Assembly (NCBI GenBank): GCA_965223545.1
Contig: OZ245006.1
Span: forward strand, 4,832,001 to 4,896,000
From: Planctomycetota bacterium
Lineage (GTDB): Bacteria; Planctomycetota; UBA1135; UBA2386
Length of the DNA: 64,000 nt
Direction: 5' to 3'
The notes beneath the pieces are model-generated. The model had not been told where the DNA came from. It worked only from the letters and a program-made list of their open reading frames with translations, and made no database searches. Within the stretch, counting starts at the first letter, position 1. Every line of letters starts with the position of its first letter. A program made the position numbers and the translations under genes. This document shows positions 7,023 through 12,016 of the stretch, piece after piece.

Positions 7023-7125
7023 GGTCGACCGAGCCAGACGTGCCGGAATGACAGAATGACAAATCGCGTAACGTCGGACTGATCGGCGCGTCCCTTCCGT
7101 GGCCCCCCGAGTGATAGAGATCCGC

Positions 7126-8748
7126 ATGAGACACGCGTTCGCCACCGTGGCCCTGGCCCTCGCCCCGCCGGTCGCCCTCGCCGCACAGCCCAACACCATC
7201 GCCGGCCTCGACCTCGAGGTGACCTCGGTCGCCGAGCTGACCATGGCCGGACGCATGGGGGCGTTCCCCACCGGCCGCAACGGGTTGGCGATGGACGTCA
7301 CGGTCTGCAACACCGGCAGCGTGCCGGTCACCTGGCTCGAGCCGATGGACCCGCGCCACCCGTACTTCGGGTTTCTCGTCTGCCGCGAGAGCGACGGTCG
7401 CTTCGAGCAGATCTCCGACCGCAGCTTCGTCAAGCACGGCATTGGGGCGGCCAACGTCAGCGCGCCGGGGTGCGGCCCCTGTACGACGACGGGCACGGCG
7501 ACGCTCGGCCTCAACTGCTCGGACACCTATCGGGTGCGCGCGAACAGCGACCGGTTCCAGCTCGGCCCCGCCGATGAGATCGACCCGTGGCTGGTGGCCT
7601 GGCAGTCGGTCGGCTCCCACTTCGACCGCGGCGAGCCCGACGTCGGACCGCCGATGAACATGGACGGAATGCGCAGTCTGTCGCGCGAGCAGGTCAACGC
7701 GATGAACCCGGTCACGCACCGGGTCGAGGTGGACGATGCGGAGCTGCTGGTCGCCGGTGCCTCGTACTTCTATGCGGCGGAAGTGCTCGTCGCCGGCGAA
7801 GCGGAGGCGCTGCGGGCCGACAACCTCGGATCGCGGCGAGTCCTGCCGAGCTTCAACGGCGTCGCCTGGGACTTCATCGAGGTCGGCGGGCTGATGCAGG
7901 GCTCGGTGCTTCACCAGTGGAGCGGGGCCAGTGTCGTGGGCGCGGCCAACGGTGCGGACGACGGTCGCGTGTATGTCGGCGTGCGCGCGATCGGGCCCGA
8001 TGCCCGCGGCCTCTGGCGCTACGAGGTCGCGGTCCACAACCGCGACAATGCGCGCGGGATCGCGAGCTTCCGCATGCCGATCTGCCCCGCGGCCCGCGTC
8101 TTCAATCCGCGGTTCCGCGACCTCGACGCGGATCCGAGCAACGATTGGGTGGTCTCCGTCTCCGGCGGAGAGATCGCGTTCTTGGCGGCCGCCAACAACG
8201 CGATCGAGTGGAACACGATCTACAACTTCGGTTTCGAGTCCGACGCCGGCCCCGGCCCGGGCTCGATCACTCTCGACCAGGCCCGGCCCGGCCCCGGAGC
8301 CGGCGCCCTGGTGATGACGCACTCGGTGCCGACCCACCTGCGCGTCGCCGACCTCGGCGGTGCGTGTGGAACCGCGCCGAGTCTGTGGCCGGCGGGCAGC
8401 CCGGCGATGCCGCTGATCCCCAATGCCACCTTCGGCATCCAGATCGACGGCGGCCAGCCCGGTGCGGGCGCAGCCCTGTTCCTGTCGGCCTCGGCCGGCA
8501 ATCTCGCGCTGTCGGGCTGCGTGCTGCGGACGGGCATGCCGGTGGCCGCCGTCCTCGGCCCGGTCGTGCTCGACCCCGCCGGCAGTGCGCTGTTCGCTCT
8601 GCCGATCCCAGCGCTCGGCGCGCTCGAGGGCGCGGACGTCTTCGTGCAGGCCCCCGTCACCGCAGCCGGTGGCCCCGCCCTCGGCGCGTTCGAGCTGAGC
8701 AACGGCCTGCAAGTGCGCATCGGCAACTTCCGCACCGGCTGCCCCTAA
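7126..8748 (+). CDS. Secreted Cys-containing hypothetical protein with shared C-terminal domain
   Basis: Signal peptide MRHAFATVALALAPPVALAAQ; GC3-biased ORF; C-terminal LPIP..L.G..V.VQ...LSNGL motif. Confidence 0.85.
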   Translation: MRHAFATVALALAPPVALAAQPNTIAGLDLEVTSVAELTMAGRMGAFPTGRNGLAMDVTVCNTGSVPVTWLEPMDPRHPYFGFLVCRESDGRFEQISDRSFVKHGIGAANVSAPGCGPCTTTGTATLGLNCSDTYRVRANSDRFQLGPADEIDPWLVAWQSVGSHFDRGEPDVGPPMNMDGMRSLSREQVNAMNPVTHRVEVDDAELLVAGASYFYAAEVLVAGEAEALRADNLGSRRVLPSFNGVAWDFIEVGGLMQGSVLHQWSGASVVGAANGADDGRVYVGVRAIGPDARGLWRYEVAVHNRDNARGIASFRMPICPAARVFNPRFRDLDADPSNDWVVSVSGGEIAFLAAANNAIEWNTIYNFGFESDAGPGPGSITLDQARPGPGAGALVMTHSVPTHLRVADLGGACGTAPSLWPAGSPAMPLIPNATFGIQIDGGQPGAGAALFLSASAGNLALSGCVLRTGMPVAAVLGPVVLDPAGSALFALPIPALGALEGADVFVQAPVTAAGGPALGAFELSNGLQVRIGNFRTGCP

Positions 8749-8755
8749 CGAGCGC

Positions 8756-8820
8756 ACGGAGAGTTTCTGGCACGACGAACGGAGTCCGGCTCGATTCTCT
8801 CGGCGCACGTACGGAGCCAG
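8756..8820. repeat. Left arm of a palindromic (REP/MITE-like) repeat interrupted by IS110
   Basis: Imperfect inverted copy at 10509..10574; 8798..8820 is the exact reverse complement of 10509..10531 (23 bp); three ACGGAG motifs per arm. Confidence 0.85.
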
Positions 8821-8866
8821 GCTCCGATTCATCACCCGGCGCCGCCGGGTGATGAATCGGAGCCTG
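8818..8866. repeat. Perfect 24-bp inverted repeat (hairpin) forming the downstream end of the IS110
   Basis: CAGGCTCCGATTCATCACCCGGCG (8818..8841), 1-nt spacer, exact reverse complement (8843..8866). Confidence 0.95.
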
Positions 8867-8875
8867 ACCTGAAAC

Positions 8876-10258
8876 TCACCCAGCCTCGGCGATCGGTATG
8901 AGCTTGTACCCGAGGGATTTAGCGTTCTGTCGGAGTCCGACGATGCGTCGCTGGGTGAAGCGCTCCTCGTAGGCCTTGGCGCCTTCGTCTACGTAGTCCT
9001 GGCCGAACTTCAGCATGCGGTAGATGAGCAGGGCCAGTTTGCGGGCGATGGCAAAGATGGCGACGTTGCCGTCCTTCGCGCGGGCGATCTTGCGGAAGTG
9101 TGCGCCGAGAGCTGTCTGAGTACGTTGGAGGGACAGGGCGGCCATCCGGAGGACCGTGGCGATCCTGCTGACCGCGATGTTGTTGCGGTGCTTCTTGATG
9201 CGCTTTCCACCCGAGACGGCTTGACGTGGGCACAGGCGTAGCCAGGAGACGAAGTGCTTCTCGGTCGGGAAAGCTTCGAGGTCGTAGCCGACCTCGGTGA
9301 GCACGATCATGGCCGTGCTCGGGCTGATACCGTCGATTCGCGTGAGATCACACCCGACGAGCCGGCAGAGGGCATCGCGAAGCTCCCGGCCGCCCTTCGT
9401 TCGGATGCTCCTCTCCTTGCGGGGGTCTGGATGCTCGGGGACGTCGGCCGTCTTGGCTTCCTCCGGTTGCAGGTCCTCGATCATCGCCATCAATCGCTTC
9501 TCGACCGACTCGATCTCGTGGTCGGTGTGCTCGAGCATCCGCAAGCCCGAAGCGAGAGTGAAGATGTGCTCCTCGATCCAGGTCCCTTGCAAGTGATCCG
9601 CGAGCTCCTTCTCGGAGATCTTGCAGCGCGGATCACGCAGTCTGGCGAGCGCTCGAGGGTCGCGTTCACCAGCGAGAATCGCGCGGATGATCGCGAGGCC
9701 GGTCTTGCCGGTGATGTCCGTTACCGCGCGATGGATCGCCACGTTCATCTGATCCAGTGACCGCTGCATCAACTGCGTGTGGCGCGTGCGCTGCGCGATC
9801 AAAGACGCGGCATGGCGTTGCAGGGTCCGCAACGCACAGATGTCCTTCGGAGGCCGGAACGAAGCGCGAATGAGGCCATAGGTGTGTAGCTTCTGCAGCC
9901 AACTGCAATCGCTGGCATCGGACTTGGAGCGGCCCGGCACGTTCTTCACCTCGCGGGCATTCGCGAGGATGACCTCGAAGCCTCTCGACTCGAGTAGCTC
10001 GTAGACGGGAATCCAGTAGACATAGGTGCTCTCCATCGCGACGGATCGCACTCCGAGCTCCTCCAGCCAGTCCGCGAGCGCCTCTAGCTGGGGCGTCGTC
10101 GTTCCGAATCGCTTGATCGGACGACTGCCGTCGGGTGCTGCTGCGCACACCCAGTGCTCGCGGCTGCCGATGTCGATTCCGGCGGCGTTGGGCTTCACGA
10201 CTGGCAATACTTCCGCTGCGGGCTTCTTGCCCTTCCTCGTTCTGCTCTTCCCAGCCAT
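8876..10258 (-). CDS. IS110-family transposase/recombinase (DEDD RuvC-like + Tnp20 domain)
   Basis: GIDIG, AMEST.VYW, KSDASDC (D-E-D-D); I.GIS...A..VL.EVG, LCP....SGGK with the conserved Ser; AIARKLA. Confidence 0.97.
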   Translation of the reverse strand: MAGKSRTRKGKKPAAEVLPVVKPNAAGIDIGSREHWVCAAAPDGSRPIKRFGTTTPQLEALADWLEELGVRSVAMESTYVYWIPVYELLESRGFEVILANAREVKNVPGRSKSDASDCSWLQKLHTYGLIRASFRPPKDICALRTLQRHAASLIAQRTRHTQLMQRSLDQMNVAIHRAVTDITGKTGLAIIRAILAGERDPRALARLRDPRCKISEKELADHLQGTWIEEHIFTLASGLRMLEHTDHEIESVEKRLMAMIEDLQPEEAKTADVPEHPDPRKERSIRTKGGRELRDALCRLVGCDLTRIDGISPSTAMIVLTEVGYDLEAFPTEKHFVSWLRLCPRQAVSGGKRIKKHRNNIAVSRIATVLRMAALSLQRTQTALGAHFRKIARAKDGNVAIFAIARKLALLIYRMLKFGQDYVDEGAKAYEERFTQRRIVGLRQNAKSLGYKLIPIAEAG

Positions 10259-10503
10259 ACTTCATCCTCATTGTTGTGGTGGGCCCGGCCCGAGGCGGCG
10301 ATCAAACGAATCTGACCTGCGGGAGTGGGCACGGCGACGTGCCCCTCACCAGTGAAGGATGGCCAACTCGGACCCAGACTGGCTCTGGGGCAAACGTGCT
10401 CCAGTGGCTATTGGGGGCGTAGCTGCCGGGCCCCTCACACGTTCCCCTCCCCCTTCCTCAGCGGCTAGTTTCCTGCCCTGAAGGGCCGACAAATCTGCCG
10501 GGG
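10259..10503 (-). ncRNA. Candidate bridge RNA region (IS110 5' non-coding end)
   Basis: ~245-nt non-coding region upstream of the transposase; contains GACTGGCTC (10377..10385), identical to the target flank 10507..10515, enclosed by a TGCCCC/GGGGCA stem (10340..10345 / 10387..10392). Confidence 0.6.
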
Positions 10504-10508
10504 CAGGA

Positions 10509-10574
10509 CTGGCTCCGTACGTGCGCCGAGAAAACGAACCGGACTCCGTTCGTCACGCGCCAGGAACTCTCCGT
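10509..10574. repeat. Right arm of the palindromic repeat interrupted by IS110
   Basis: Inverted copy of 8756..8820; abuts the stop codon of the convergent dehydrogenase gene. Confidence 0.85.
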
Positions 10575-11525
10575 TCACGGCCGTGTCCGTTCGAATCGGC
10601 AGTGCTCGTCGTACTCGTCGCCAGCGAGGCAGCGCACCAACGCGCTGGCCACGCGGGTGCACATGCGCGCGTAGGTCGCCTCGGTGAGGGCGGCGACGTG
10701 GGGGGTGACGATTGCGCGTGGGTGCGTGATCAGGGGATCGTCGGGCGAGGGTGGATCGGGTTCCGCGCAGTCGGCGGCATAAGCGCCGACGCGTCCGCTG
10801 TCGAGCGCGGCGCGCAGCGCGTCGCCGTCGATCAGTCCGGCGCGGGCGGTGTTGACGATGATGCTGCCGCGGCGCAGGCGGCCGATCCGCGCCGCGTCCA
10901 AGAACGCGCGGGTGTCGTCGTTGAGGGCGAGGTGCAGAGAGACGACGTCCGCTGCGCGCAGCAGGGCGTCGAGGGATGCGGAGTCGGTGTCCGCGCCCGC
11001 ACCGCGGTTCCAGTGGAGCACACGCATGCCGAGCGCGGTCGCCAGCGCGCCGACGCGGGTGCCGATGGCGCCCCGGCCGATCACGCCGAGGGTGGCGCCG
11101 GCGCACTCGGTGCCGGCGTAGCGCGCGCGGCGTTGCCAGTCGTTCGCCCGCACCGCGTTGGCGGCGTCGAGCAGCTGCCGCTTGGCCGCCAGGATCAGCA
11201 TGAGCGTGTGCTCGGCGACCGTCGTCGTCAGGCTGCCCGGTGCGTGCAGTACGGTGACGCCGCGTTCGGCCGCCGCGTCGACGTCGACGTTGTCGAGGCC
11301 GACGCCGCAGCGCGCCACCACCCTCAATCGTGGTGCGCGGCCGATCAGCGCCGCGTCGATCCGGCCGCGGCCGCGGGTCACGATGGCGTGCGCCGCCGCG
11401 ACTTCCGCGTCGGGCGGTGCCTCGGGCTCGGGCGCGATGCTGACCGTCGCTGCCTCTTCGATCAGGGCAAGTGCGTCGTCGTGGATCGACTCCAACAACA
11501 GGACGCGCGGCCGGCCGTCGATCAC
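10575..11525 (-). CDS. D-isomer-specific 2-hydroxyacid dehydrogenase (SerA-like, no ACT domain)
   Basis: RCGVGLDNVD, VAEHT, GVIGRGAIG, VSLH, NTARAGLID, TPHVA; GTG start overlaps the upstream TGA. Confidence 0.92.
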   Translation of the reverse strand: MIDGRPRVLLLESIHDDALALIEEAATVSIAPEPEAPPDAEVAAAHAIVTRGRGRIDAALIGRAPRLRVVARCGVGLDNVDVDAAAERGVTVLHAPGSLTTTVAEHTLMLILAAKRQLLDAANAVRANDWQRRARYAGTECAGATLGVIGRGAIGTRVGALATALGMRVLHWNRGAGADTDSASLDALLRAADVVSLHLALNDDTRAFLDAARIGRLRRGSIIVNTARAGLIDGDALRAALDSGRVGAYAADCAEPDPPSPDDPLITHPRAIVTPHVAALTEATYARMCTRVASALVRCLAGDEYDEHCRFERTRP

Positions 11526-12016
11526 GAATCGTGAAAGAGCGTGGCCGCGTCGCTCTTGAAGCCGCGGTCGTCGTCCCGGCCGGAGCGGTAGAGGCCGGGG
11601 TCGTCTTCCGTCAGCGCATCGGCGAACACGGCGGGATCGACCTCGTAGTCGGCCGCGCAACACACTTCGATCAAGTTGTCGGAGGGATCGCGCACGAACA
11701 TCTGCATGCCCCCGTCGGGCAGGCGCCGGACCTTGCCCCACGGCCGCGTGTCGATCGCACGCCGCGCCTTCATCCGGAAGAAGCAGTCGTTGAAGTCGTC
11801 GATCTCGATGCACACGTGCCCGCGGAACGACGGCCGGTCGCGCCATTCGGTCAGGTGCAGCTGTTGGTGGTCGTTGATCCGGTAGAACTGAGCGGGGTAG
11901 TCGAACTTGAACGCCGGCAGCGCCTCCAGGCCGAACTCGTCCTCGTAGAAGCGGCACGCGGCGGCGAGATCGTCGACCACGAGGGCGACGTGATTGATGC
12001 GGACCATCTTGGGCAT
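11522..12016 (-). CDS. VOC/glyoxalase-family protein
   Basis: INHVALVVDDL...RFY, QLHL, GHVCIEI, QMFVRDPSDNLIEV. Confidence 0.9.
   Translation of the reverse strand: MPKMVRINHVALVVDDLAAACRFYEDEFGLEALPAFKFDYPAQFYRINDHQQLHLTEWRDRPSFRGHVCIEIDDFNDCFFRMKARRAIDTRPWGKVRRLPDGGMQMFVRDPSDNLIEVCCAADYEVDPAVFADALTEDDPGLYRSGRDDDRGFKSDAATLFHDS

Follow-up and report, generated by a model that had tools for sequence, protein, structure and literature searches.

Probable spread of an ISPpu9-like IS110 element through GTAC-tagged, REP-like repeats of a Planctomycetota genome

Organization of the locus

The window, a stretch of 64,000 nucleotides, belongs to an 8.07-Mb contig (C1) of a Planctomycetota genome (G000) with a GC content of 69.7%. 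It contains a gene for an IS110 recombinase, which together with its non-coding ends is inserted in a nested palindrome between two other genes (Table 1). As noted in the original prediction, the stop codons of these genes, TAA (8746-8748, +) and TGA (10575-10577, -), converge on the insertion site, which is intergenic.

Table 1 Features of the IS110 element, its nested palindromic target, and the flanking genes
Feature	Position	Strand	Remark
Left flanking gene, 549 aa, no Pfam/NCBIfam family	7099-8748	+	Stop codon 7 bp before the palindrome
Outermost arm layer, left, first ACGGAG	8756-8776	+	Found at this locus only
Degenerate copy of repeat family 2, left, GTAC-tagged	8777-8802	+	
Empty copy of repeat family 1, GGAGCC-A-GGCTCC stem	8809-8835	+	Center 8819; unused target
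Spacer hairpin of the repeat doublet	8836-8848	.	Apex 8842
Inner part of the occupied repeat-1 copy, right target	8849-8863	-	
AG core, right junction	8864-8865	-	Flank alignment, homologs
Right end of the element, left donor	8866-8875	-	The 10 bp next to the stop codon
IS110 recombinase, 460 aa	8876-10258	-	D29, E76, D114, D117, S349
Left non-coding end, 250 bp	10259-10508	-	
Predicted bridge RNA, closing stem and two internal loops	10281-10435 (approximate)	-	Consensus fold
Putative donor guide CAGGTC-AG, 3' side of loop 2	10312-10319	-	Left donor + core
Putative main target guide GAGCC-AG, 3' side of loop 1	10379-10385	-	Left target + core
Putative short top-strand target guide AGCC, 5' side of loop 1	10406-10409	-	
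AG core, left junction	10509-10510	-	Flank alignment, homologs
Outer part of the occupied repeat-1 copy, left target + GTAC tag	10511-10520	-	
Degenerate copy of repeat family 2, right	10527-10551	-	
Outermost arm layer, right	10552-10574	-	Directly adjoins the stop codon of the following gene
Right flanking gene, D-isomer 2-hydroxyacid dehydrogenase family	10575-11534	-	3' 319 codons scanned

The recombinase contains the domains PF01548 (DEDD_Tnp_IS110, E 1e-26) and PF02371 (Transposase_20, E 5e-14), and scores 248 bits against the model NF033542, which has a cut-off of 140 bits. The catalytic residues D29, E76, D114, and D117 are invariant in 40 of 40 recombinases, all of which also have S/T349 followed by G350 (SG in 34 and TG in six). 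The predicted structure of the recombinase (pLDDT 89.6), which replaced a poor single-sequence fold with a pLDDT of 44, matches the fold of IS621 with an E value of 1e-13 at 20% sequence identity. IS621 and ISCro4 are the only solved structures matched, and neither is close. At a threshold of E 1e-40 the recombinase was not found in 59 of 60 related genomes, and the remaining genome contains a 38% partial match. Homologs on plasmids are widespread, with identities of up to 46%, and those among the matches listed carry only 'IS110 family' labels.

Ends and core of the element

The contig contains 23 full copies of the element and one fragment. The full copies are 99.4-100% identical over the 1625 bp compared and have exactly common ends: the shared sequence starts 250 bp before the start of the gene and runs, in all 23 copies, to 12 bp past its stop codon. 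The flanks of the 23 copies delimit the element in the window to positions 8866-10508, which corresponds to 1643 bp plus a 2-bp AG core. The non-coding ends are of unequal length, 250 bp on the left as compared to 10 bp on the right, and the long one is positioned upstream of the gene. The left flank reads GTAC[G/C]GAGCC-AG and the right flank begins with GCTCC, each in 22 of the 23 copies, and AG is present at both junctions of every copy as well as in homologs. Excision from AG to AG takes out 1645 bp in 17 copies and 1646 bp in six. The trinucleotide CAG is common to all 23 local copies, but the base preceding AG differs among homologs, and therefore the core is AG and not CAG. As is characteristic of the IS110 family, the element has a short common core and lacks terminal inverted repeats. 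Subterminal repeats of 7-17 bp are absent from the element, which has only a 4-bp CAGG/CCTG pair near the core.

End-to-end junctions joined at AG are present in the homologs L120 and L133. The original prediction had located the core within CCTG, and the circle junction derived from it has no copy in C1 and would not be the junction of the circle; the revised junction is also absent from C1, as expected for a chromosome. In sequencing run X4, which may be that of the source sample, the depth is 841 on the element versus about 40 on its flanks. The loose ends at 8858, 8848, and 10520 in runs X5, X6, and X8, which belong to other studies, correspond to ends of the element in repeat flanks. Among the contigs of four runs, no joint of a circle or of an empty site is listed, which speaks neither for nor against a circle, and no RNA data set is listed as containing the element. 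A sigma-70 promoter scan of positions 8700-10650, which covered the inserted form, found no promoter.

The 23rd copy (G000:C1:4826239-4829681) is a tandem duplicate located 2 kb to the left of the window. Its right end is joined to a non-target AG upstream of the original site, and about 180 bp of the left flank were carried along. The joint is in line with half-match recombination (10.64898/2026.08.31.748434; 10.64898/2026.08.14.744561). A remnant at G000:C1:988113-988240, which lies at a non-repeat site, consists of 114 bp from the start of the gene and, fused to them, the right end.

Nested palindrome at the insertion site

The reconstructed empty site is a 174-bp palindrome, longer than the approximately 130 bp proposed originally, with its apex at 8842. 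From the center outward, each arm consists of a spacer, a unit of repeat family 1, a degenerate unit of repeat family 2, and an outer layer. Three ACGGAG motifs mark the layers of the arm (8756, 8779, and 8811, with the complement at 10513, 10544, and 10569), and positions 8798-8820 are an exact 23-bp inverted copy of positions 10509-10531; both features agree with the original description. The outer layer is inverted and duplicated, but was rejected as a third repeat family, as it occurs only at 8756-8776 and 10552-10574. Similar nested palindromes are found empty at C1:769811-769931 and occupied at C1:7651722-7653493.

The original prediction had the element inserted exactly at the apex of the hairpin, with a junction at 8818-8821 and with the 49-bp hairpin at 8818-8866 as its right end. 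The exact 23-bp inverted flanks fit this geometry, as does the presence of CAGG at both proposed junctions (8818-8821 and 10504-10507); one CAGG, however, belongs to the empty repeat and the second to the left end of the element. A 28-nt right flank like that of the window is present in only four of the 23 copies, and the 18-mer proposed for the empty site has no copy in C1, either exact or with one mismatch. Furthermore, the high-depth contig of run X4 begins at 8859 and not at 8818, and the same 49-bp hairpin stands in doublets that are free of the element. The alignment of the flanks of the 23 copies refutes the apex geometry and leaves it with practically no chance of being correct. The 49-bp hairpin, which the repeat finder reports as a perfect 24-bp hairpin, is target DNA and not part of the element, and therefore the element sits 23 bp off the palindrome apex, in one of two symmetric repeat-1 units. 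The arms belong to the target and are not termini of the element, a part of the original proposal that stands; neither of the two outcomes named there as refuting it was seen.

Repeat families and their occupancy

After removal of the elements, C1 contains 110 units of repeat family 1, which is defined by a GTAC tag and a GGAGCC-A-GGCTCC stem. The element occupies 22 of them, 88 are empty, and 12 inverted doublets are empty, so the earlier claims that the element targets a host palindromic repeat family and that unoccupied copies exist are both borne out. Occupancy by class is 14/83 for ordinary units, 7/20 for symmetric units, and 1/7 for units with a flipped central base. The repeats are REP- or REPIN-like in that they are multi-copy palindromes with inverted doublets; the tetranucleotide that precedes the stem is GTAC in both repeat families and not the canonical GT[AG]G of REPs. 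A TGA is positioned 5 bp upstream of 77 tag-side repeat matches. The GTAC pattern matches 12 of 60 relatives and is abundant in three of them.

The unpaired central base of the repeat palindrome, which is A or T depending on the strand, supplies the core and therefore sets the orientation of the element. Because the core is AG, the element follows the A strand, and a flipped unit is the informative case. In the single occupied unit of this kind, the element is reversed with respect to the tag. At G000:C1:1714955-1718271, the element has filled the two units of a doublet in direct orientation, since the central base of one unit is flipped.

Repeat family 2 has 114-123 copies according to two patterns. 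Forty-three of its units differ from the 10-mer recognized by the element at one guide position, and none of the 43 is occupied (Fisher p=5e-4). The sequence GAGCC-AG occurs at 1936 sites, and the 10-mer, which includes the short second guide, at 126 sites, 110 of which are repeats; pairing alone therefore nearly explains the pattern of insertions. It is conceivable, though rather unlikely, that the guides choose the sequence and that folding of the target into a hairpin or cruciform, or a contact between the protein and GTAC, is required as well. Such a second determinant would be consistent with 22 of 23 insertions being in the 110 repeat units despite the 1936 GAGCC-AG sites, and with the conservation of occupied sites for 14 bp to the left and 14 bp to the right of the core; there is also the precedent of ISPpu10, for which a structural requirement of the target was demonstrated (10.64898/2026.03.19.712850). 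However, the absence of insertions from the non-repeat 10-mer sites (0/16, p=0.07) is not significant, as these sites are too few, and clustered repeat-1 units and doublets are not preferred (9/46 vs 13/64). Selection against insertions in genes is, moreover, not separated from site choice in these counts.

Y1 genes and the origin of the repeats

Fourteen matches to PF01797 were found in the genome, and two of them, with scores above the cut-off, are long Y1 genes that are 45% identical to each other. One (C1:3914532-3915533) is flanked by a pair of inverted repeat-1 units, each of which is occupied by the element. The second is located between inverted repeat-2 units and runs without a stop codon for 999 codons. 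The two proteins score 63.5 and 57.2 bits against NF047646 (RAYT), which has a cut-off of 80, and a candidate C-terminal helix-turn-helix scores 21.2 against Sigma70_r4_2, which has a cut-off of 25.7. With HFH and YxxxNP motifs and a long C-terminal extension, they resemble enzymes of subclass 2.1/TIRYT (PMC6006769, PMC3733652). Ten homologous Y1 loci in four other genomes comprise one with GTAC repeats on both sides, one with a doublet on one side, one with a single degenerate copy, and seven without repeats. Y1 genes with flanking repeats are found in G000 and G045, and also in G061, where the repeats are on one side only. The GTAC repeats were probably made and spread by the two HUH/Y1 genes that they flank.

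The two convergent copies of the element around the first Y1 gene (G000:C1:3912831-3917182, L002) form an IS-Y1-IS unit that resembles a composite transposon. The genome also contains a 12-copy family of Y1 genes of about 230 aa with unrelated 3' flanks (G000, L003-L010 and four more sites), which is possibly an active IS200-like element. This family was rejected as the partner of the repeats: no repeat-1 motif is present beside its genes, and one repeat-2 copy follows one of them.

Alternatively, the repeats could be scars or products of the IS110 element itself, with no host family behind them. All insertions but one are in repeats, and genome G061 contains footprints that would suit this origin, namely repeats in which two AG cores enclose no more than 9-12 bp of the right end (L230, L231, and L234) and a mini element of about 90 bp with both ends. 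Against it, repeat family 2 is equally abundant and never occupied, and GTAC repeats are present in relatives without a match to the recombinase (21 in G005, 10 in G045, and 5 in G031, all incomplete assemblies). Together with the flanking of Y1 genes, these distributions make an IS110 origin of the repeats very improbable, and a host repeat family targeted by the element is the preferred reading.

Predicted bridge RNA and its guides

As in other IS110-family elements, the non-coding end contains a computationally predicted two-loop RNA that matches target and donor (Table 1). The consensus fold of 25 sequences has two internal loops with unpaired guides, and two-sided changes are present in 22 of its 38 pairs. 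A search of Rfam returned five weak matches, far below the gathering scores.

Homologous loci were fetched in numbers of 75 and 80, and 136 loci, including the query, contain the gene start. The guides were tested in 39 of the 136 loci, those with a strict loop-1 anchor and enough flank. Among the distinct, non-redundant guides, 14 of 21 match the upstream flank by at least 5 nt plus AG, as compared to a mean of 0.18 and a maximum of 2 for permuted guides (2000 permutations). Matches of at least 4 nt are located 106-127 nt upstream in 18 of 19 cases. The loop-2 guide likewise equals the terminus of the right end among homologs. The homolog L011, which is 78% identical and resides in another genome, has the guide GTGCC-AG, and its host has a repeat with a GTGCC stem in both arms; the pattern of this repeat has 76 matches in the genome of L011 versus one for the control. 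This comparison of guide and repeat is of one pair of genomes and is not a phylogenetic test. The sixth base of the main guide (A) mismatches a G of the target in the register tested.

A scan of eight registers in four pairings placed the putative top-strand guide on the 5' side of loop 1, and the register of this guide is therefore post hoc. In 19 elements, with two tandem loci dropped, the three bases before a CAYT motif show complementarity to positions 1-3 of the right flank in 26 cells versus 13.0 after permutation (0/5000); without the query and L011 the values are 21 and 11.7. A held-out set of 20 element groups, for which 48 of 97 additional loci were parsed, scores 31.4 versus 17.7 (p=0.0002), with the qualification that kin are not independent and that four groups belong to one subclade with an AA core. 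The first base of the motif tracks the core: AG-core loci have a C there in 26 of 30 cases, and AA-core loci have a T in 13 of 18. The right flanks of nine copies in G066 and of three in G064 are variable and mostly miss the predicted match to the right target, and groups G067-G071 were left out of the boundary counts. The right-target guide thus appears weak. For the right donor, eight registers were scanned on 16 elements, and none gave a significant guide.

Both loops have the bottom-strand guide on their 3' side, and the top-strand signal comes from the 5' side of loop 1; this arrangement differs from the IS621/ISEc21-type order with the bottom-strand guide in the 5' position. The top-strand guide thus seems to come first, which is the order described for IS1111, even though the RNA is encoded upstream of the gene.

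Two groups of homologs differ from the query in their surroundings. The AA-core subclade (L030, L057, L154, L161, L165, L166, L168, L172, L184, and L288) is inserted in an A-run, which looks like the frameshift site of IS3-type elements, and its RNA motif changes with the core; in L288, an annotated IS66 gene follows. The homologs L120, L133, L139, L246, L250, and L260 lie directly behind right-end-like sequence, and in some of them the target guide equals the donor end, which suggests that these elements may target their own or a sibling's end.

Model of insertion and its implications

The copies, their flanks, and the guides are best explained by an ISPpu9-like IS110 bridge recombinase element that has, very probably, spread recently to 23 copies by targeting GTAC-tagged REP-like repeats. 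By analogy with IS621 and ISPpu9, the element would leave its site as a circle joined at AG, and the RNA transcribed from its left end would bind the recombinase. Loop 2 would pair with the donor junction and loop 1 with the target, and strand exchange at AG would insert the element. The sequence shows the ends, the core, the target family, and the identity and covariation of guides and flanks: the main guide equals the five bases to the left of the core, and a short second guide is complementary to about three bases to its right. The target in the window was a repeat-1 doublet nested in a repeat-2 doublet nested in a unique outer layer, with the right-hand repeat-1 unit hit and the left one still empty.

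A more far-reaching reading is conceivable but less likely than not. The clade of long recombinases (440-460 aa) with an AG core, to which ISPpu9 belongs by eye, may represent a third bridge-RNA architecture, with an upstream RNA, the guide order of IS1111, and a dominant 5-nt and a loose 3-nt guide per target. In the Planctomycetota genome, it may have retuned its guide to a hitherto undescribed class of GTAC-tagged repeats made by TIRYT-like Y1 enzymes; by occupying the repeats on either side of the Y1 gene, the element may have formed a potential composite transposon with the gene that produces the targets of the element.

Since insertion of IS110 elements into REPs is established, the locus as such is ordinary. 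Its value lies in natural controls: discrimination by one base between the sister repeat families 1 and 2, orientation set by one base of the loop, and a guide that differs with the host repeat between two genomes. These controls make the tracking of repeats by guides directly testable. If the reversed guide order holds experimentally, the bottom-strand-first rule for IS110 elements with an upstream RNA is not general. Guide order matters for the prediction and reprogramming of guides in this widespread clade, which has no close solved structure.

Comparison with known systems

REP/REPIN-RAYT and TIRtron/TIRYT systems (PMC3733652; PMC6006769) have repeats as singles and inverted doublets, and inverted copies flank a HUH/Y1 gene, as in the genome studied here. 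The tag here is GTAC, in contrast to GT[AG]G or CGTC in the RAYT/TIRYT systems, and the main texts of both papers contain no match to 'GTAC'. Neither the GTAC tag nor a reversed guide order for IS110 elements with an upstream RNA was found in the literature searched, which included the accessible parts of 10.1101/2025.10.25.684509, 10.64898/2026.10.21.760802, and PMC13626964. This guide layout may already be shown in 10 of PMC11208160 and in Fig. S12 of the clustering preprint.

IS621 and ISCro4 (PMC11208160; PDB 8WT6-9, 9T56) share with the element the fold of the DEDD and Transposase_20 domains, an upstream two-loop RNA, and a 2-bp core. The target of IS621 is a REP, similar to the repeat target here, and the 5' side of its loop pairs with the bottom strand (PMC11208160). 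The order of top before bottom strand is that of IS1111, and is reversed in IS110 (PMC11187229). The IS1111 seekRNA elements resemble the present one in having the top-strand guide first and an SG/TG serine motif (PMC11187229). Unlike IS1111 elements, which have recombinases of 330-350 aa, a downstream RNA, and subterminal repeats, this element has a recombinase of 460 aa, an upstream RNA, and no 7-17 bp repeats. ISPpu10 is a REP-targeting IS110 element whose target folds into a stem-loop (10.64898/2026.03.19.712850), and its core is CT as compared to AG here.

The close precedent is ISPpu9 of Pseudomonas putida KT2440, which is bounded by AG on either side, forms AG-joined circles, and enters REPs, in many cases within REPINs, at an AG of fixed position (10.1101/2025.01.17.633520; PMC8450116; PMC1525189). 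The AG core and the REP-type target are shared with the element described here. Inspection by eye of the supplement of PMC1525189 indicates that ISPpu9 has an ORF of about 440 codons with the motifs of this clade, the same layout of loops in the left end, and a 3' guide identical to the REP flank on the left, as here. By eye, the two elements thus appear to belong to the same clade. By eye, the ssr9 region of ISPpu9 in supplement S3 of PMC1525189 looks like a second bridge RNA, with a target guide equal to the B box end and a donor guide equal to its own end, and would be a guide-only parasite of ISPpu9. ISPpu9 and the present element differ in the repeat family that they target and in the position of the insertion, which is inside the loop of the stem here and after REP base 9 in ISPpu9. 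Unlike ISPpu9, the present element is characterized by a GTAC-tagged target, a 10-bp right end without an ssr9-like module, and 23 copies.
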